Shown one piece after another: positions 1 to 9,082 of a stretch of DNA of 64,000 nucleotides (position 1 is its first letter; each line of letters starts with the position of its first letter). Both the position numbers and the translations under genes were made by a program. Source of the DNA: a bacterium (GTDB lineage: Bacteria; RBG-13-61-14; DATKZS01); contig CAXXFL010000002.1 of NCBI GenBank assembly GCA_963674965.2, forward strand, positions 480,001 through 544,000, in the 5' to 3' direction. Under the pieces are notes generated by a model. That model was not told the origin of the DNA. It saw nothing but the letters and a program-made list of their open reading frames with translations, and searched no databases.

Positions 1-705
1 TATTATGAATCACATATTGATGATTGCCTCGATATTGCAAAGGAGATGGATGATCAGACCAAAAAAGGGAAAGTGTATTATATCGCGGCGTCATCTAAGC
101 ATGCAAAATTGCATAAATTGTTCAAAAAAGCAGAGTCAAATAATGGCGATTACCGAGATTTAAGCAAAGCGGCGGATGAAGTGATTGCCCTTTACAATAA
201 GGCCTTGGAATGCGATTTAGATGCGGGCGCCAAGCTGGAAATTTGGGAAAGTAAATCATCTGCATACGCCTATAGATCGGAAGGCGACATGAAATATCTA
301 CCGGAGGTAGAACGAGAAAGTCTTAATTGCCGGCTTCATATATTACTATTGTCAATTACAAACCAAAAGGAAAATGAAATCATACAATATGAAAAATACC
401 CGATATGCTCTAAACCATATGGCCAAGTAGATTATTCTAAATGCTTTGAAACTTATGAAGAAAGGTCAAATTATGTAGAAGAACAAAATCGTATTATTGG
501 CGATCGATATTCTTACACTTTTGAATTTATTTCTTGTTGTCTTGACAATCGCCATGGCCAAAAGGAGAAGAGCAAAAATGATTGTCTAGAGTTGATCGAC
601 ACGTACGTTGTCGATCAAGAATTGAAGAATGAGTTAATTTACTACGTACGCGAGGAAACCGTTCCAAAAAAACTTGGCCACTTTGATATTCCTGAACTAA
701 AATAA
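1..705 (+). CDS. Cys-rich helical lipoprotein, array family C, copy 1 (5' end outside the window)
   Basis: Open frame from base 1; near-identical to 5866-6570, whose full-length ORF has a lipobox (HVGC); AT-rich. Confidence 0.8.
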   Translation, partial: YYESHIDDCLDIAKEMDDQTKKGKVYYIAASSKHAKLHKLFKKAESNNGDYRDLSKAADEVIALYNKALECDLDAGAKLEIWESKSSAYAYRSEGDMKYLPEVERESLNCRLHILLLSITNQKENEIIQYEKYPICSKPYGQVDYSKCFETYEERSNYVEEQNRIIGDRYSYTFEFISCCLDNRHGQKEKSKNDCLELIDTYVVDQELKNELIYYVREETVPKKLGHFDIPELK

Positions 706-812
706 CCAACCGTCCTTGCATTAGGAGGCTATCATGTTTCCGCAAAACAAAGTCAGATTACTCTCCACAGTAATTTTCATCCTTCTTTCATGCCGCGCTT
801 CCCTTGCCGAGG
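1..812 (+). repeat. Direct repeat R1 copy a (lipoprotein gene, intergenic and start of leader gene); copy b at 5866-6677
   Basis: Co-linear at offset 5865, e.g. tattatgaatcacat at 1 and 5866, and taaccaaccgtccttgcattaggaggctatcatgtttcc after both stop codons. Confidence 0.95.
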
Positions 813-1723
813 AAGGATTTAAGGCCCCTTCCGCCGGCGGCATTTTCAAAGTACCGATCGAAAACAAGGGCGAGGTCACCATTCACGGGAACGCTATCGA
901 CGTTTTCCGCCTCGAGGAAAACCCCTCGGATATCGTCACGGGCATAAGCTTCCAGCCTTTGCCCGGCGGCGATTTATTATCTGGCGAAACGGTTATTTTA
1001 ACCATCACTCCTTTGAACCTCGGAGAGATCGAGGACCGCGAGGCATGCGAGGCGTTTAAAAATCCCAAGGTTTACATCAAAACGGCCGCCGCCGAGCCTC
1101 TGGCCAATTACGAGGACATTATCGAAATACCGGTCGAGCCGGCGGGTTTCCACAATTTAAGCGTCGATTACGAAAACTGCGTTATTTACTGGAACTGGGA
1201 ATCCTGCAGCTGCTCGGTCGGCGGTTGCGGCTTCAGTTCGGGAAGCGACAGCCGCGAGATTCCCGGTTGCGAGTGGGCCAAACCGGACGACAACGAGATA
1301 CTCTCGACGGACATACCCGGCCGCCTTTCCGGCGACGACCCGCGAGCTCGAGTCGGAGTATTGGGCGCCCCTCTTTTCGAGGAGTACGCCGCGTCCTTTC
1401 TCGACTCGATCAACGTCGCCTCCCGGAGCGTCGATCCCTTCACGGACCTGGGACCCGATCTGTACGTTTCCGAGGGCGTCAGTGTCCTCGTCATCCCCTC
1501 GGCGTCGCTTTCGCCTTACGTAAATTCCGCGTCTTTCATCTCCAATCTGGACGAGTACGTCTCGGCTGGCGGCGTCGCCGTTGTTTTCTCACAGGCCACC
1601 GGGGATGACTGGTCCATCGTCCCCGGTTCTCCCGAGGCATTCGGTTATACTCAGGACGTTCTTTGCTATCGCGGCGGCGCCCGTCCCTCCGCCTATCATC
1701 TTTTGATATCCAGCGAGGCAAGC
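734..1723 (+). repeat. Direct repeat R2 copy a (990 bp of gene A); copy b at 4482-5471
   Basis: Co-linear at offset 3748; identity ends after ...atccagcgaggcaagc at 1723/5471. Confidence 0.95.
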
Positions 1724-1834
1724 GCGAAGTCCGACGTTCATACCGACGGGTCCTTCGTTAACCGATCAAGGGGGCCGGTTTTCTGGGGGCCTCGAATTTG
1801 CCGGCAATTTTGCCGCATGGGAATAATTTCTTGA
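734..1834 (+). CDS. Secreted protein, array family A, copy 1 (probably C-terminally truncated)
   Basis: RBS aggagg; signal peptide MFPQNKVRLLSTVIFILLSCRASLA; GC-rich; alpha/beta segment VLVIPSASL...LDEYVSAGGVAVVFSQ resembles a class-I glutamine-amidotransferase-like fold; the last ~25 aa look like read-through. Confidence 0.7.
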   Translation: MFPQNKVRLLSTVIFILLSCRASLAEEGFKAPSAGGIFKVPIENKGEVTIHGNAIDVFRLEENPSDIVTGISFQPLPGGDLLSGETVILTITPLNLGEIEDREACEAFKNPKVYIKTAAAEPLANYEDIIEIPVEPAGFHNLSVDYENCVIYWNWESCSCSVGGCGFSSGSDSREIPGCEWAKPDDNEILSTDIPGRLSGDDPRARVGVLGAPLFEEYAASFLDSINVASRSVDPFTDLGPDLYVSEGVSVLVIPSASLSPYVNSASFISNLDEYVSAGGVAVVFSQATGDDWSIVPGSPEAFGYTQDVLCYRGGARPSAYHLLISSEASAKSDVHTDGSFVNRSRGPVFWGPRICRQFCRMGIIS

Positions 1835-1859
1835 CACATTGATACGCAAATGTTATGTA
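1831..1859 (+). promoter_or_regulatory. Possible sigma70 promoter for the 549-aa gene
   Basis: TTGACA at 1831-1836, 17-bp spacer, weak -10 TATGTA. Confidence 0.3.
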
Positions 1860-1930
1860 CTGATGGATCAGGGGAAAATCGGATAATATCCAATCAGCCG
1901 AATCTATGGAGATCAAGGGGGTATTGATAG

Positions 1931-3580
1931 ATGGCCGGCAGAGCAAAGCCACTTATAATCGCGGTTGTGATATTGTTTACTTTTATGATTACAATAGCTT
2001 ACGGAATCGAGATAACAAGGGAGGAGCCGCTGGAGCGCGAGGCCATTTGGCTTGAACTGATCGAGCCGAAATTTACTCCGTATTACATTAATGTTTGGGA
2101 CTCTGACGGAGGAGTGACGGTTGCCGCTCGAACAAGTGAACCCATTTCATTCAGCGCACGAGACTCAGAAGACACGCAGCTTGATGAGCCAGAATTAGTC
2201 AGGAATTATGGCATTGTAAAAGCTCAGATTCATCCACTAAATACATCAGGGCATTATTCATTTAAAATAATCCCAGACTATCCGGAAAATCAATTCTCAA
2301 CCGACATTTCCAATCCTGGGACGGCAACGTTTAGGGCATCCGTACCCGGAAGCTATCGCATCGTACCTGAGTTTTACACTAGTGACGGCAAATTAATCGT
2401 GGTATCAAAAGGCCCTGAAGAACCAAATCAAGATGAGATGTTTGAGGCAAATTTAACGACATTTTCTATTAAAGTTAAAGATACCTGCAGAAGAAAAGTA
2501 TATCAAGTTGATTGTGAAAGCGAGGAAACAAATCAAAACTGTAAAAATATTTTTGGAGTGAATGAAATCGTAGAATTCAATATAATTATGGGAGATTCCT
2601 TATTACAGACATTTAGAGGCGATTGGACGCATAGCAATATAGACGCAGGTGACTTTGGATATAATGATGTCTATGCCGTTGATCCTGGTAGCACTAGTAT
2701 GGCTTACCCACGCGTTTTGGCTGAGGCCCATGAATACATCAATGATGCTATACCGATGTTTCAAGCCTCTACTACAGCAAATATTGCTGATACAATTACC
2801 GTAAAATTCAATAAGCGAGCAGGACATGATGGAGAGCCATTAATCGTAGCCAGACAAAAAGAGACATACAATTTCAAAATCTCTGAACCAAAATATTTTA
2901 TCCCAGTAGACTATGACCCGGCTATTCATCCCGATTATGTTCAACCTTGTAATAGCGGAGAGAGAGGAACGAAGTACTGCTCTGACTTGAATGCATATGG
3001 CCCGGAAGGAGACATTTCAACTGGGCAATCAATGGGAATTAATGCGGGATATTATCTCAAATTAGAGCCTTCTCAAGCTTGTTTCAGGAATATTCTTATT
3101 AGAGATAATTTCACAAACTGCGGAAATACATTAGGGCCAAACAACTGTATTAAATGGGTATGGCCAAATGGTGAAACTTACTGCCCTGCACTTGGAACAA
3201 CTGAAGGAGATACAAGCGGAACAATACCGATAGGTATTTGGGAGATGAATTTTGACAATATTTATAGGGATAAAGCAAAAACGGGCCTTTTCCCATTGCA
3301 ACTAATGAATGAGGTAGCGGAGATTTATAAATATCCTGTAAGAATCAAGATTGAATGGAAATCAACGTTATCTTCAGCGGGCTCTTGGAAAAATATTGGT
3401 CGATCAGGTTTTTGCGCGTATTTTCATCCAAATGGCCAAGCAAATGCGAGAAGAGTTGTCGACAGAATTGGTGATGGTGATACTCTCGGTTATCCGGAAA
3501 ATCCATGTAACAATAATATTGATGCCTTATATTACACTGAGTCTTCGCTCAAAGGTCCTTGGCTGAGACCATCGCACTAG
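1931..3580 (+). CDS. Secreted Cys-rich protein, array family B (549 aa, unknown function)
   Basis: N-terminal signal peptide; AT-rich; C-terminal motif W..IGRSGFCAYFHPNGQANARRV...LYYT..S.KGPW is shared with the tail of 4482-5696. Confidence 0.8.
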   Translation: MAGRAKPLIIAVVILFTFMITIAYGIEITREEPLEREAIWLELIEPKFTPYYINVWDSDGGVTVAARTSEPISFSARDSEDTQLDEPELVRNYGIVKAQIHPLNTSGHYSFKIIPDYPENQFSTDISNPGTATFRASVPGSYRIVPEFYTSDGKLIVVSKGPEEPNQDEMFEANLTTFSIKVKDTCRRKVYQVDCESEETNQNCKNIFGVNEIVEFNIIMGDSLLQTFRGDWTHSNIDAGDFGYNDVYAVDPGSTSMAYPRVLAEAHEYINDAIPMFQASTTANIADTITVKFNKRAGHDGEPLIVARQKETYNFKISEPKYFIPVDYDPAIHPDYVQPCNSGERGTKYCSDLNAYGPEGDISTGQSMGINAGYYLKLEPSQACFRNILIRDNFTNCGNTLGPNNCIKWVWPNGETYCPALGTTEGDTSGTIPIGIWEMNFDNIYRDKAKTGLFPLQLMNEVAEIYKYPVRIKIEWKSTLSSAGSWKNIGRSGFCAYFHPNGQANARRVVDRIGDGDTLGYPENPCNNNIDALYYTESSLKGPWLRPSH

Positions 3581-3618
3581 GCACAAATACCATGAATAAT
3601 TGAACAATTAGTAAGGAG

Positions 3619-4440
3619 ATGGTTATGAGTCGCGAGGTATCAATCATTATTATTGTTATATTAGGTTTGATCTACTCCATTACCGGATGTAAAAATAAGA
3701 ATATCCCAGAGGAAAAGTCCGATAGTCCAAATATTACAGATAACCAATGCTTATCCAATGATTTTGAAATTAGCGCAAACTCTTTCCAGCAATGCCTTAA
3801 TATTGCCAAGACAACTGATAATCCAGATAAAAAATGCCGTATCTATTTCAGAGCCGTATTATATAAAAGGCAGGAAATACTCAAATTGCCTCAAAGCACA
3901 GAAGATAAGGATTATAATTTCGAAAAGATAAGTGAATTGGTTAATGAGCTTATTAATTTCGCGGATAAATCTTTAAAATGTGATTTAGACTGGCGTACTG
4001 AACTAACAATTTATCAACAAAAGTCATGGGCTTATGGCATGAAAACTAATTACGGCCTTAACCAAGAGCCGGGTTTGGATGAAAATATAATTTACTGCGA
4101 TCTTCATATATTAAGGTTAACGGATGAAAAATTGATAGAAAAGGACGCCGTCAGATATACTGACTCTTTCCCGTTATGTTCTGAAGAATTCAGAAATAAA
4201 TCTCTTAAATGCTTTAATACAACCGGAGAGAGAAAAAATTATATTAATAACCAAAATAACCTCTACTTTAACAAGCGAAAGTTATTCTCCTTTTTACAAA
4301 GTCGATGTAGAAATACTACTAATAAAACGGATACATTTGGAGAATGTATGGAAATGATTGATACAATCATCGATGACAATGAACTTAGAGATGAGTTGCT
4401 TAGTTATATTGGACCTCCGCCTAATCCTTCACCACAATAG
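3619..4440 (+). CDS. Cys-rich helical lipoprotein, array family C, divergent paralog
   Basis: RBS aaggag; lipobox ITGC; blocks align with 5728-6570 (CLNIAK/CLDIAK, LKCDLD/LECDLD, CDLHIL/CRLHIL, KCFNT..ERKNY/KCFET..ERSNY, ECMEMIDT/DCLELIDT). Confidence 0.85.
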   Translation: MVMSREVSIIIIVILGLIYSITGCKNKNIPEEKSDSPNITDNQCLSNDFEISANSFQQCLNIAKTTDNPDKKCRIYFRAVLYKRQEILKLPQSTEDKDYNFEKISELVNELINFADKSLKCDLDWRTELTIYQQKSWAYGMKTNYGLNQEPGLDENIIYCDLHILRLTDEKLIEKDAVRYTDSFPLCSEEFRNKSLKCFNTTGERKNYINNQNNLYFNKRKLFSFLQSRCRNTTNKTDTFGECMEMIDTIIDDNELRDELLSYIGPPPNPSPQ

Positions 4441-4481
4441 AAACAATATAATTGCACTCTCTAAAATATCAGGAGTAGATC

Positions 4482-5696
4482 ATGTTTACGCAAAACAAAG
4501 TCAGAGTACTCTCCACAGTAATTTTCATTCTTCTTTCGTGCCGCGCTACCCTTGCCGAGGAAGGATTCAAGGCCCCTTCCGCCGGCGGTATTTTCAAAGT
4601 ACCGATCGAAAACAAGGGCGAGGTCACCATACACGGGAACGCCATCGACGTTTTCCGCCTCGAGGAAAACCCCTCGGATATCGTCACGGGCATAAGCTTC
4701 CAGCCTTTGCCCGGCGGCGATTTTTTATCGGGCGAAACGGTTATTTTAACCATCACTCCTTTGAACCTCGGAGAGATCGAGGACCGCGAGTCATGCGAGT
4801 CGTTTAAAAATCCCAAGGTTTACATCAAAACGGCCGCCGCCGAGCCTCTGGCCAATTACGAGGACATTATCGAAATACCGGTCGAGCCGGCGGGTTTCCA
4901 CAATTTAAGCGTCGATTACGAAAACTGCGTTATTTACTGGAACTGGGAATCCTGCAGCTGCTCGGTCGGCGGTTGCGGCTTCAGTTCGGGAAGCGACAGC
5001 CGCGAGATTCCCGGTTGCGAGTGGGCCAAACCGGACGACAACGAGATACTCTCGACGGACATACCCGGCCGCCTTTCCGGCGACGACCCGCGAGCTCGAG
5101 TCGGAGTATTGGGCGCCCCTCTTTTCGAGGAGTACGCCGCGTCCTTTCTCGACTCGATCAACGTCGCCTCCCGGAGCGTCGATCCCTTCACGGACCTGGG
5201 ACCCGATCTGTACGTTTCCGAGGGCGTCAGTGTCCTCGTCATCCCCTCGGCGTCGCTTTCGCCTTACGTAAATTCCGCGTCTTTCATCTCCAATCTGGAC
5301 GAGTACGTCTCGGCTGGCGGCGTCGCCGTTGTTTTCTCACAGGCCACCGGGGAGGACTGGTCCATCGTCCCCGGTTCTCCCGAGGCATTCGGTTATACTC
5401 AGGACGTTCTTTGCTATCGCGGCGGCGCCCGTCCCTCCGCCTATCATCTTTTGATATCCAGCGAGGCAAGCCCCGTCTGGAATGAACTAGGCAACTCTGG
5501 TTTTTGTGCCTATTTCTATCCAAATGGAAGCGCCAACGCAAGGAGAGTGATCGATAAGCTAAGTGAAAACGATTCTCCTGGCAATCCCGATGGTCCAACT
5601 TATCCATGCGCGGAGAATGGAAACTCATTGTATTACACTACAACTTCACCTAGAGGGCCTTGGGTGACTCAATCTAGTATTCCATTGCCAAATTAA
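4482..5696 (+). CDS. Chimeric secreted protein: family A N-terminus (330 aa) fused in-frame to a family B-type C-terminal module (~74 aa)
   Basis: First 990 nt near-identical to 734-1723, then an abrupt GC drop and PVWNELGNSGFCAYFYPNGSANARRVIDKL, homologous to the end of 1931-3580. Confidence 0.8.
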   Translation: MFTQNKVRVLSTVIFILLSCRATLAEEGFKAPSAGGIFKVPIENKGEVTIHGNAIDVFRLEENPSDIVTGISFQPLPGGDFLSGETVILTITPLNLGEIEDRESCESFKNPKVYIKTAAAEPLANYEDIIEIPVEPAGFHNLSVDYENCVIYWNWESCSCSVGGCGFSSGSDSREIPGCEWAKPDDNEILSTDIPGRLSGDDPRARVGVLGAPLFEEYAASFLDSINVASRSVDPFTDLGPDLYVSEGVSVLVIPSASLSPYVNSASFISNLDEYVSAGGVAVVFSQATGEDWSIVPGSPEAFGYTQDVLCYRGGARPSAYHLLISSEASPVWNELGNSGFCAYFYPNGSANARRVIDKLSENDSPGNPDGPTYPCAENGNSLYYTTTSPRGPWVTQSSIPLPN

Positions 5697-5727
5697 TGAT
5701 TTGCCTTTAAATTGAGAGGAGATTACT

Positions 5728-6570
5728 ATGGCTAAGAAAATATCTTTATCAGACATATGTGGCTTTCTATTTATTGCCGTTTTTTTACATGTTGGATGTA
5801 ATAATATCCCAAGTGAACCAGGCGAAAGCGTCACTCAGCAGAAATGCTTGCAAGGCAGTTTTAAATATTATGAATCACATATTAATGATTGCCTCGATAT
5901 TGCAAAGGAGATGGATGATCAAACCAAAAAAGGGAAAGTGTATTATATCGCGGCGTCGTCTAAACATGCAAAATTGGATGAATTGTTCAAAAAAGCATTG
6001 GGGAATGAGGGCGATTTCCGAGATTTAAGCAAAGCGGCGGATGAAGTGATTGCCCTTTACAATAAGGCCTTGGAATGTGATTTAGATGCGGGCGCCAAGC
6101 TGGAAATTTGGGAAAGTAAATCATCTGCATACGCCTATAGATCGGAAGGCGACATGAAATATCTACCGGAGGTAGAACGAGAAAGTCTTAATTGCCGGCT
6201 TCATATATTACTATTGTCAATTACAAACCAAAAGGAAAATGAAATCATACAATATGAAAAATACCCGATATGCTCTAAACCATATGGCCAAGTAGATTAT
6301 TCTAAATGCTTTGAAACTTATGAAGAAAGGTCAAATTATGTAGAAGAACAAAATCGTATTATTGGCGATCGATATTCTTACACTTTTGAATTTATTTCCC
6401 GTTGTATTGACAATCGCCATGGCCAAAAGGAGAAGAGTAAAAATGATTGTCTGGAGTTGATCGATACGTACGTTTTCGATCAAGAATTGAAGAATGAGTT
6501 AATTTACTACGTACGCGAGGAAACCGTTCCAAAAAAACTTGGCCACTTTGATATTCCTGAACTAAAATAA
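5728..6570 (+). CDS. Cys-rich helical lipoprotein, array family C, copy 2 (full length)
   Basis: RBS gaggag; signal peptide with lipobox FLHVGC; near-identical to 1-705. Confidence 0.85.
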   Translation: MAKKISLSDICGFLFIAVFLHVGCNNIPSEPGESVTQQKCLQGSFKYYESHINDCLDIAKEMDDQTKKGKVYYIAASSKHAKLDELFKKALGNEGDFRDLSKAADEVIALYNKALECDLDAGAKLEIWESKSSAYAYRSEGDMKYLPEVERESLNCRLHILLLSITNQKENEIIQYEKYPICSKPYGQVDYSKCFETYEERSNYVEEQNRIIGDRYSYTFEFISRCIDNRHGQKEKSKNDCLELIDTYVFDQELKNELIYYVREETVPKKLGHFDIPELK

Positions 6571-6598
6571 CCAACCGTCCTTGCATTAGGAGGCTATC

Positions 6599-6724
6599 AT
6601 GTTTCCACAAAACAAAGTCAGAGTACTCTCCACTTTAATTTTCATTCTTCTTTCGTGCCGCGCTACCCTTGCCGAGGCATGTCCACCCCGAGTCACCACC
6701 CTGGGAATATTAAATCCGGCGTAG
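6599..6724 (+). pseudogene. Third, truncated family A start (signal peptide only, 41-aa ORF)
   Basis: MFPQNKVRVLSTLIFILLSCRATLAE, then unrelated sequence from 6678; TAG at 6722-6724. Confidence 0.75.
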
Positions 6725-6886
6725 TGTTGCCATTAACCCAAGCCAAGCCTGTAACTCTTCAATAATGAAAAGGTTTGAAAAATAAAGCGTTGAAAAAAAG
6801 TTAAAACGGCGGAAAGATTTAAACCGCGTTGACCGATTGCTTGCCCCGCGGTGTTTTGCTAAATTCAGCGGGCTCGCTTCCCCTTC

Positions 6887-8266
6887 TCAGTCTTCGGCCT
6901 CTTTCTCGCGCTTTTTGAATTCCCACCATACCCAGGCGACGGCGAAGACGCCGCCCACCACGTGGGAGGAGGCGATGGCGACCCAGGCCCCGGCGGGACC
7001 GATCGAGTGGTGGAGGACGGTGACTAAAGGTATGGCCACGAAGATGAAGCGGGCGAGGGTAATGATGAGGGGAGGAAGGCCCTTGCCCAGTCCCTGGAAG
7101 GCCCCGCCCAGCACGAAGACCTGGGACACGAAGACGTAGGTGAAGCCCACTATGCCGATGTACTCGAGCCCGTAGCCCGAGATGACCTGGTATAGTACCG
7201 GGTCTTCGGTACGGTTGAAAAGGCCGATGAAGAACTCGGGGAAACATATAAAGACCATGCCCATGGCGCCCGAGAAGACGGCGGCGAAGAACCCGCCGGT
7301 CCAGGCCGAGCGCTTGGCCCGGGACAGGTTTCCGGCCCCGTAGTTCTGGCCCACCATGGACACGACCCCCAGCATGAGGCCTATCATGGGCAGCACCGCC
7401 AGCATGTCGAGCTGGGCGCCCATGCCGTAGGCGGCGGTGGCGCCCTCGTACTGGTTTAGCACCCTGAGGAAAATCATGGTCGCGAACCAGGCCGACATGT
7501 TGCGGCCCATCATGGGCACTCCGACCCGCAGTATCTCGATAACGTGGCGCGGATGCCAGTGGTAATTGCAAAAGGACAAGGTCCAGTTGGTCTTGCCCCG
7601 CTTCAAGTAAAATATCAGCAGGACGCAACCCACTCCCCGGCCGATGACCGTGGCCAGGGCCCCGCCCATTACGCCCATGCCCAGCCAGCCGAGGTGAAGA
7701 CCGAATATCCGGTCCTCCGGCCCGAAAATCAGGAGGGGGGCCAGGACGAGGTTGATCGAGAGACTGATGACGGCCAATACAAAGGGCGCCACCGAGTTGC
7801 CTTCCCCCCGCAGGATGTTGGCCCCGATCAGGCTGAACATGATGGTCACGTTGCCCACCAGGATGATCTTAATAAAGTCGTGGGCCGTTTCGATCATGGA
7901 CTCGTCCATTTTCAGGACCCTGAAATAATGGCGGTTCAAGGGAAGTAAAATCACGGTGGCGGAAATGGATAGTATGGCCATCAGAATAATGGCGTGCATG
8001 GCGGCGTTGTCGGCCTCGTTATATTCGCCCTTGCCGATCAGGCGGGCCACGTAGGAGGTCACGCCCGTGGCCAGTCCGGTCGCCATCATGATGATGAACA
8101 TCTGGAGATTGGCGGCGTTGACCACCGCTGAAAAGGCCTCGGGCCCGAGCTGGGCGATGAATACGCGGTCTAAAATTCCGAACAGGGGCTGGATGGCCAT
8201 CTGCCCGATAATCGGGGCGCTGAAGAGGAGCAGGACAACGGGGATGCTTCCCCTGGTAAGGTCCAT
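6887..8266 (-). CDS. MATE family efflux transporter
   Basis: MDLTRGSIPVVLLLFSAPII start, DRVFIAQLG, ILRGEGNS..P, GQNYGAGN, about 12 TM segments; start placed at ATG 8266. Confidence 0.92.
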   Translation of the reverse strand: MDLTRGSIPVVLLLFSAPIIGQMAIQPLFGILDRVFIAQLGPEAFSAVVNAANLQMFIIMMATGLATGVTSYVARLIGKGEYNEADNAAMHAIILMAILSISATVILLPLNRHYFRVLKMDESMIETAHDFIKIILVGNVTIMFSLIGANILRGEGNSVAPFVLAVISLSINLVLAPLLIFGPEDRIFGLHLGWLGMGVMGGALATVIGRGVGCVLLIFYLKRGKTNWTLSFCNYHWHPRHVIEILRVGVPMMGRNMSAWFATMIFLRVLNQYEGATAAYGMGAQLDMLAVLPMIGLMLGVVSMVGQNYGAGNLSRAKRSAWTGGFFAAVFSGAMGMVFICFPEFFIGLFNRTEDPVLYQVISGYGLEYIGIVGFTYVFVSQVFVLGGAFQGLGKGLPPLIITLARFIFVAIPLVTVLHHSIGPAGAWVAIASSHVVGGVFAVAWVWWEFKKREKEAED

Positions 8267-8758
8267 GCCCCGACCGCGGGGGGGAACGGCCTCGGCCGCC
8301 GGCGGCTCGGGACAGGCGACGCCATGGTCTATTCCGATATTTTTTTTCCCGTCTTCAAACAAAGGCTTTCCCAGGTCGGCCCAAGGGCGCGCACGCGAAG
8401 GCAACCCGCCGCCGGGCGTGAATCGGATATCGAGTATCAAGAGTACACGTAGTCTCATGAAAATGCACGCCAATCAAGAGAAGGAACATTTTTTACGCCT
8501 CATGAAAAAATCTTATATCGGCGGCAAAGCCGACTTGGAGCGGGAAATCTTTCGCTTCTGATCTGGAAACTCGATTCCGCAAGGAAAAGACGCGCGGAGG
8601 GTCCCTGGCTAATAAAAGTAGCTTTAAGCCAGCACGCTCCTGATCCTGATTTTTACAACAGCCTATTAAAAAAAGGTTTTTTCTATCTCGATATCAATCC
8701 GGGCTTTTCCGTTTTATTAGATCGCTCTAATTTTTTTATGGAGGAGGAAAATTTTTTC

Positions 8759-8807
8759 TTGACAAAGGATTTAAAAGAAACTAAAATGATTTTAAAGGAT
8801 TTAAAAG
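8759..8807 (+). promoter_or_regulatory. Sigma70 promoter with overlapping 14-bp direct repeats (candidate operator)
   Basis: TTGACA 8759-8764, 17-bp spacer, TAAAAT 8782-8787; AAAGGATTTAAAAG at 8764-8777 and 8794-8807. Confidence 0.75.
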
Positions 8808-8848
8808 TAGCTATGAGTAACATAAAGGACGATAAAGGAGCGAAGAAC

Positions 8849-9082
8849 ATGCCCTCGGAAATTCTTCTGACTCTTGAACAAGTGGCGGAAAGACTGGCCG
8901 TAAGCCGAAAGATGGTATTCGACTGGGTAAGAGCGGGCAAGATTCCCGGAGTTAAGCTCGGGCGCTTATGGAGGGTCAAGCAGAGCGCGCTTGACGAATT
9001 CATCAATTCCCTGGAGACGGTAGGACCCAACGACGACCAGCGCGGCCCCGACCGTGAGGAGGACGCGGATGAGGGCCGATAA
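8849..9082 (+). CDS. Excisionase-family (HTH_17/BldC-like) DNA-binding protein
   Basis: LLTLEQVAERLAVSRKMVFDWVRAGKIPGVKLGRLWRVKQSALDEF; RBS aaggag before ATG 8849. Confidence 0.9.
   Translation: MPSEILLTLEQVAERLAVSRKMVFDWVRAGKIPGVKLGRLWRVKQSALDEFINSLETVGPNDDQRGPDREEDADEGR

Follow-up and report, generated by a model that had tools for sequence, protein, structure and literature searches.

An in-frame gene chimera in a bacterial cassette array, probably left behind by a deletion

The window analyzed here is a stretch of 64,000 nucleotides of bacterial DNA, and its first 6.7 kb form one gene array with all genes on the plus strand (Table 1). The genes are designated A, B, and C after their types, and the ORF under study, A2, starts like an A copy and ends like a B gene. 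The left edge of the array lies 25 nt before the start codon of C1, with the ribosome-binding site retained. Beyond the stub at the right edge, the next gene lies on the minus strand and was named by eye as efflux-type. The A stretches have a G+C content of about 0.60, like the genome (0.57-0.60 per contig), and the values for the B and C stretches are about 0.30-0.43.

Table 1. Features of the gene array at the beginning of the window.
Feature	Positions	Strand	Description
C1	to 705	+	lipoprotein gene, 3' part; starts 137 nt before the window; first gene of the array; 95.7% aa identity to C2
A1 (A' copy)	734-1834	+	366 aa; first 342 residues of the giant gene followed by 24 unrelated residues
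B (window copy)	1931-3580	+	549 aa; N-terminal membrane helix, then a beta-rich, Cys-rich body of no known family
C'	3619-4440	+	273 aa; diverged lipoprotein paralog of C, about 30% aa identity
A2 (chimera)	4482-5696	+	404 aa; open frame in the ORF list of the window
A-derived part of A2	4482-5471	+	signal peptide and residues 1-330 of the giant-gene N-terminus; predicted to end within a glutamine-amidotransferase-like domain
Joint in A2	5467-5472	+	A-type identity up to 5471; B'-type sequence exact from 5471, 4/5 bases over 5467-5471
B' tail of A2	5472-5696	+	final 74 codons and stop codon (5694-5696) of a B paralog, cassette type 'a'
C2	5728-6570	+	280 aa; lipoprotein, cassette partner of the B' tail
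A3 stub	6599-6724	+	41-aa ORF; A homology ends at 6677, just past the signal peptide, then unrelated DNA; right edge of the array

Scanning positions 1-7000 for promoters and terminators was uninformative, with 18 promoter-like sites against 12.5 ± 3.3 in shuffled sequence and 11 terminator-like sites against 7.5 ± 3.0. The end codons of A' together with the A'-B spacer (1835-1930) harbor the hexamers TTGACA and TATGTA, separated by 17 nt; the scan missed this pair because the last base of the second hexamer is not T. This stretch is 99% identical in all three units and missing from A2. A search for inverted repeats of at least 30 nt (seed 12) yielded 0 pairs in window 1-9000. No recombinase gene was evident by eye in the ORF list for 1-8500, the family libraries having covered five cassette proteins only. 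To the right of the array, at 8764-8823, four overlapping copies of an A+T-rich 30-nt unit with a spacing of 10 nt lie at the start of an excisionase-like ORF (8738-9082). This ORF is followed by a 1100-aa ORF with TPR-like, FHA-like, and AAA ATPase motifs (all assigned by eye).

The first part of A2 was nearly identical to the other A copies. Window 4468-5471 showed 98.2% DNA identity over 1004 nt to the A1 copy at 720-1723, and the A copies were 97-98% identical to A2 over 1004 nt; all of these alignments ended at 5471. Codon 330 (AGC, Ser) closes at base 5471 and codon 331 (CCC, Pro) opens the tail, so that the two parts meet exactly between codons. The sequence around the joint reads GGCAAGC/GCGAAG in A1, CCAAAC/CCCGTCTGG in the related B' gene on contig C6, and GGCAAGC/CCCGTCTGG in the chimera. 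The initial annotation had stated that identity with A1 stops at 5471 and that the frame runs on from there, and both the genome alignment and the joint letters bore this out. The G+C content falls at the joint from about 0.60 to 0.43. The sequence AGGAG lies 8 nt 5' of the A2 ATG, and the signal peptide is intact. A2 was the single A::B' fusion in the organism's own 6.5-Mb genome. The chimera, both parental types, and the joint were thus seen directly, and A2 is confirmed as a real ORF that joins the truncated front of a giant gene to a B-type end. Microhomology at the joint, which the initial annotation had proposed looking for, amounted to 1 exact base common to the parents (C at 5471), or to 4 of 5 bases over 5467-5471. 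We found no repeat or recombinase site at the joint, and no IS remnant.

With the tail of A2 as the query in a tblastn search of the own 6.5-Mb genome, the end of the B gene of the window (3386-3565/3574) was matched with 52% identity over 63 aa and an E-value of 1.5e-18. The reverse search with B as the query returned the A2 tail with 51.5% identity over 66 aa (E 2e-15). Because these E-values are far beyond chance, the tail is a homolog of the B end; it is also diverged from it, as had been noted from the sequence at the outset. A much closer relative was present on contig C6 (783641-783420), where 73/74 aa (98.6%) are identical to the tail. At the DNA level, 4/225 bases differ between the A2 tail and the C6 B' tail, one of them within the stop codon. 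The similarity extends beyond the tail: C6:783646-782436, which carries B'-C-A, shows 95.5% identity to window 5467-6677 with the tail, C2, and the first part of A3. The initial annotation had proposed looking upstream of C1 for an intact B paralog with exactly this tail. Upstream of C1 lies a radical-SAM-like ORF (by eye), and the paralog was found on contig C6 instead. It is longer than the tail, but its start has been lost beside an IS and its tail differs by 1 aa.

The larger array on contig C6 also indicates what A is. The last A copy on C6 opens an ORF of 2840 aa with FG-GAP, MAM, and MG2 domains, here called the giant gene. ORFs of the A1 type track this gene up to nt 1027 (residue 342), and A2 tracks it up to residue 330. 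Past nt 1027/1028, 3/3 full A' copies depart from the giant gene at the identical base and have in common what follows, namely 24 unrelated codons and a 96-nt spacer ahead of B. We therefore assume one old duplication joint, which subsequently was amplified together with the B-C cassettes. When A2 was used for an exhaustive, profile-free search, 271 proteins were returned at E ≤ 0.001, most of them very long and matching residues ~157-357. Like the giant gene, the best long homologs, P0004 and P0005, continue past the points at which A1 and A2 stop.

We modeled the first 450 residues of the giant protein with AlphaFold, using an alignment of 46 rows. Residues 201-410 formed an alpha/beta structure with block-mean pLDDT values of 84-97. 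In Foldseek searches, residues ~200-405 resembled class I glutamine amidotransferase subunits, the GH42 trimerization domain, and ThuA-like proteins, with E-values from 7e-8 to 1e-5. The target-normalized TM-scores were 0.54-0.74 (glutamine amidotransferase subunits, ThuA-like proteins) at a sequence identity of 6-14%. C311 is a nearly invariant Cys in the alignment of this domain. Pfam gave no match for the glutamine-amidotransferase-like domain, and a PDB sequence search with the giant N-terminus gave 0 matches at E up to 1. Among 15 genomes, the giant N-terminus was found in one, the organism's own, and in 0/14 relatives. Past residue 330, the model contains strands at 340-343, 349-354, 360-367, and 370-375 and helices at 379-384 and 390-404. 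The complete fold (model residues ~200-405) is present in the giant protein and absent from A2 and A1, which fall short of 3-4 strands and 2 helices. Because the cuts at residues 342 (A1) and 330 (A2) fall within the modeled domain, both proteins end inside a folded domain and carry a truncated, incomplete version of it. The initial annotation had spoken of a leader A. A is a repeated, truncated 5' fragment of the 2840-aa giant surface-protein gene, which ends within a folded domain, and not a gene of its own.

On contig C6, the array (764987-784880, minus strand; loci L002-L005, L007, and L008) has the order B'-C-A'-B-C-A'-B-C, followed by the giant gene. Its cassettes have a G+C content of 0.30-0.47 and its A pieces of 0.60-0.62. 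The first 1027 nt of the giant gene have been copied at least four times, each copy together with low-G+C B-C cassettes. The first B' of this array lacks about 57 N-terminal residues and abuts a truncated copy of a 1.66-kb IS, and the third B is split by the same IS. Only 2/5 B loci are intact; at the others, the start is lost beside the truncated IS, the gene is split by the IS, or, as in A2, only the tail is present. The element of about 1662 nt is IS3-like (family assigned by eye from two ORFs), with 24 near-full-length copies of 98-100% identity among 32 HSPs genome-wide. Copies lie at the starts of contigs (e.g., contig C2:1-910 and contig C7:1-995) and also at contig C5:529-2191; several contigs begin within such a copy, and the assembly therefore breaks at this IS. 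Together, the broken B loci, the IS-rich genome, and the signal-peptide-only stub at the end of the window array point to a setting of decay.

Some further copies were seen outside the arrays. A lone C copy on contig C4 (257115-257954; locus L009, 2146-2997, minus strand) is 91% identical to C2 at the amino acid level and is interrupted by a premature stop, 11 codons short of its end. A copy of the 1.66-kb IS is located about 170 nt away, and the left edge of this C copy cuts in at the ribosome-binding site. A second giant ORF of 3315 aa (C6:789174-799121, minus strand) lies 4 kb upstream of the C6 array and has a copy of the glutamine-amidotransferase-like domain with 34-39% identity. An IS110-like transposase ORF (by eye) and a low-G+C ORF of 546 aa lie between this ORF and the C6 array.

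A chimera in a repeat array could also be an artefact, namely a misjoin of the assembly between repeat copies that are 95-98% identical and include five A copies. We inspected Logan short-read contigs from three runs of one study (X1-X3). These runs may be the source of the assembly itself, so that their support is not independent of the sample. The initial annotation had proposed counting reads that span 5471. Among the pieces listed for X1-X3, no contig extends at least 31 letters to both sides of 5471, and 5518-5691 is covered by a single contig, which has the letters of the C6 version, as a misjoin would predict. The missing letters of the window version are no evidence of absence, because contigs drop minor variants. 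Other features of the same contigs argued for the joint. An A contig ends exactly at 5471 in X2, and a tail contig starts exactly at 5471 in X1 and X2. Loose contig ends carry B' context before 5471 and A1 context after it. The tail had a depth of 41.3 in X1 and 28.1 in X2, compared with 19.2 and 16.5 for the adjoining single-copy contig, a ratio of about two, and the depth of A was 97.3 and 63.6, about 4-5 times the single-copy depth. The breaks and the doubled depth fit two tail copies with two left-hand contexts, i.e., a real joint. In addition, misjoins form within sequence that both sides have in common, which at this joint amounts to 1 base. We consider an artefact extremely improbable. 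In X3, a second sample of the same study, the only tail contig (5467-5585) runs in from B'-type sequence without a break at 5471, at a depth of 7 that is too low to call the fusion absent. The same run contains the right edge of the window array (6608-6781) without differences.

To judge what the tail contributes to A2, the B family itself has to be considered. The intact B genes encode 525 and 549 aa. In an alignment of four B proteins and two fragments, conservation begins at about residue 320 and extends to the C-terminus, with 47/264 invariant columns over residues 57-320, 44/163 over 321-483, and 21/66 over 484-549. By these counts, the tail appears slightly more conserved than the rest of the C-terminal region of B and not set apart from it as a separate unit. 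The most conserved block of B follows an indel-prone stretch, and the tail starts directly past this stretch, 2 residues ahead of the first residue in the block that is invariant. Because of this position, the tail could form a subdomain of B. It also contains two invariant Cys residues, which could pair with each other. An AlphaFold model of B from a 4-row alignment reached a mean pLDDT of 32. The family layout consists of an N-terminal membrane helix, a body of about 480 aa, and a conserved C-terminal block. Only the last 74 of ~525-549 aa are present in A2, which thus carries a B fragment and is not a B protein.

Of the 149 non-self matches listed for A2, three (P0003, P0001, and P0131) have their best stretch confined to the tail. 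In all three, two of which come from the own genome, the tail corresponds to the C-terminal end of a B-type protein or fragment, and among the matches listed the tail did not occur outside B-type proteins. P0131, a metagenome protein of 525 aa on a contig of 2796 nt, was the sole outside homolog of B that we saw. B was found in 1/41 genomes searched, which was the own genome, and in 0/40 relatives. When 5.8 billion proteins were searched by a word index within the near length range, B alone was recovered among 6285 candidates. Metagenome contigs yielded no B-related loci when searched with the B alignment or with P0131. One locus on a genome contig (L010) matched B with 38% identity over 51 residues (E 2e-4, relative to the candidates only) and was judged spurious. 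None of A1, B, C', A2, and C2 reached the cut-off of a Pfam or NCBIfam family, and PADLOC gave nothing credible for A, B, and C. In the ESM Atlas, the scores were ≤0.82 for B (fimbrillin or PKD-like leads) and ≤0.90 for C2 (lipoprotein or TPR-like leads), both below a useful level.

The coding regions were then compared for signs of selection. Among the five A copies, which differ by 11-24 positions per pair, pN/pS was 0.19-0.51 in 10/10 pairs, and the C copies showed ratios of 0.27-0.53. Changes private to the four truncated A' copies were 7 synonymous and 8 non-synonymous, compared with about 3:1 non-synonymous expected without constraint; changes private to the giant gene were 3 synonymous and 5 non-synonymous. 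Variants common to several A copies group the copies in conflicting ways. This mosaic pattern speaks for gene conversion among the A copies. Because conversion with the intact gene gives the same pattern, the mild constraint on the A copies may be borrowed from the giant gene. Homogenization is not restricted to A: a conserved tract at window 1-2101, comprising the C 3' end, A', the spacer, and the first 170 nt of B (1931-2101), is 96.8% identical to C6:783247-781147. Beyond this tract, protein identity drops to 41-51% for the rest of B and to about 30% for C'.

These data bear on the suggestion of the initial annotation that A2 arose by a selected exchange of tips and gives a secreted A with a new tip. 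The expressed hybrid would then display the conserved C-terminal block of B on the signal peptide and scaffold of A and work together with the lipoprotein C2. The fusion is indeed in frame at a codon boundary, and the AGGAG motif, resembling a ribosome-binding site, and the signal peptide have been kept. The tail begins just ahead of the most conserved block of B, past the indel-prone stretch, and the A copies are without obvious decay. Between the tail and its C6 counterpart there are 2 synonymous changes and 1 non-synonymous change, a ratio that might be taken as a sign of selection, but three substitutions are too few to weigh and have no power to show it. Against a tip exchange, the joint removes 4 strands and 2 helices from a confidently modeled A fold and shows neither homology nor a recombination site. 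Moreover, the genome contains a single fusion of this type, the matches listed show the tail in B-type proteins only, and the locus ends in stubs. The suggestion was thus left without support, and we consider such an exchange quite improbable.

The other possibility raised by the initial annotation, a deletion that kept the frame, fits the data: the parents were identified, and the joint lacks usable homology and cuts both the A domain and the C-terminal region of B. In the history that we propose, an old tandem duplication would at first have produced a second copy of B-C and of nt 1-1027 of the giant gene. This unit would then have been amplified and part of the array copied to the window locus, where the C 3' end, A', and the first 170 nt of B would have been homogenized, while the B and C cores would have stayed only 30-50% identical. 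Finally, one non-homologous deletion, in a genome that is rich in IS copies and has broken B genes, would have generated A2. It would have removed the last 111 nt of A', the 96-nt spacer, and approximately the first 450-480 codons of B' (~1350-1450 nt). The total of ~1.55-1.65 kb was deduced from the lengths of the intact B proteins (525 and 549 aa). Codon 330 of A' would thereby have been joined to the last 74 codons of B', with the frame kept by chance (1 in 3). The predicted product starts with the signal peptide, continues with about two thirds of the alpha/beta domain, and closes with the last part of the conserved region at the C-terminus of B.

As the undeleted A'-B'-C2 parent was not seen anywhere, the deletion is an event that we infer. 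A2 is probably the scar of an illegitimate deletion of ~1.55-1.65 kb within one A'-B'-C unit, and we assign this reading a probability of roughly two thirds (0.68). The A2 product is most likely a non-functional remnant, which may still be translated. The in-frame joint at a codon boundary counts against a remnant, as do the retained AGGAG motif and signal peptide and the constraint on the A copies.

Alternatively, a 1.2-kb fragment with the B' tail, C, and the first 79 nt of A could have been copied from a C6-type array, and template switching or end joining could have attached it to a broken A'. Segment 5472-6677 has abrupt, non-homologous borders on both sides (A nt 990 against the tail, and A nt 79 against unique DNA), as expected for an inserted patch. 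Other joints of this kind occur in the genome, at the lone C on contig C4 and where the truncated IS abuts the truncated B' on contig C6. However, two independent illegitimate joints would have been needed instead of the one that a deletion requires, and the order A'-(B')-C-A is the regular order of units in the array. We therefore regard an inserted patch as unlikely and prefer the deletion.

Fusions of neighboring genes made by deletion resemble A2 in that two adjacent ORFs on the same strand are joined, the intervening DNA is lost, and the joint has 1 exact shared base and no repeat or recombinase site. Unlike in such fusions, both partners of A2 stem from a repeat array, and the 5' partner was already a truncated copy. 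Because both partners belong to the array, the parental forms survive as paralogs elsewhere in the genome.

In Rhs and CDI systems, a full-length delivery gene comes first, and orphan cassettes of C-terminal tips and immunity genes follow downstream. The arrays described here are similar in having low-G+C variable cassettes beside a very large secreted-protein gene, a conserved stretch of that gene repeated at each cassette, and a small partner gene after each variable protein. Unlike in those systems, it is the 5' end of the giant gene that is repeated as the handle, with the cassettes located upstream of this gene (on C6, B-C-A'-B-C-A'-B-C-giant gene), so that the polarity is reversed. B also has its own start codon and a membrane helix. 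No toxin domain or immunity family was found in the cassette proteins with the known families of Pfam, NCBIfam, and PADLOC. Tip exchange in Rhs and CDI systems by homologous recombination within the conserved stretch was not matched either: the A2 joint lies outside the shared handle and has 1 exact base (4/5) in common. Orphan toxin-immunity cassettes and displaced C-terminal tips of Rhs and CdiA proteins are described in PMC3150448, PMC3967940, and PMC3482391.

Chimeras of conserved N-terminal paralogs have also been described for the MBA locus of Ureaplasma, where, according to PMC3047005, they are formed by site-specific DNA inversion. A2 has in common with them that a conserved N-terminal paralog is combined with another C-terminal part, resulting in a chimeric surface protein. 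In contrast to these chimeras, which form reversibly at inverted repeats, window 1-9000 has 0 inverted repeats of at least 30 nt, and its array genes lie on one strand.

The fusion in A2 would by itself be an ordinary scar of genome decay. It also advises caution: paralogs that are joined in frame should be taken as a case of module exchange only after both partners have been shown to be whole folding units. The arrays around A2 are more unusual than the fusion, with copies of the 5' end of a giant gene traveling with B-C cassettes of no known family. A bolder reading, which we hold to be doubtful, takes the A'-B-C units as a type of cassette array that has not been described so far. Gene conversion would keep the G+C-rich 5' kb of the giant gene, along with the neighboring 3' end of C and the initial 170 nt of B, 95-98% identical. 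This stretch would act both as a leader and as a portable homology handle for pairs of a lipoprotein C and a membrane-anchored, Cys-rich B protein, which are low in G+C and diverge fast. The A2::B' fusion would then be one expressed outcome of such shuffling, a hybrid led by a signal peptide that exports the conserved end of B. If the arrays were indeed a working system of variation, they would be the mirror image of the tip-cassette arrays of polymorphic toxins.
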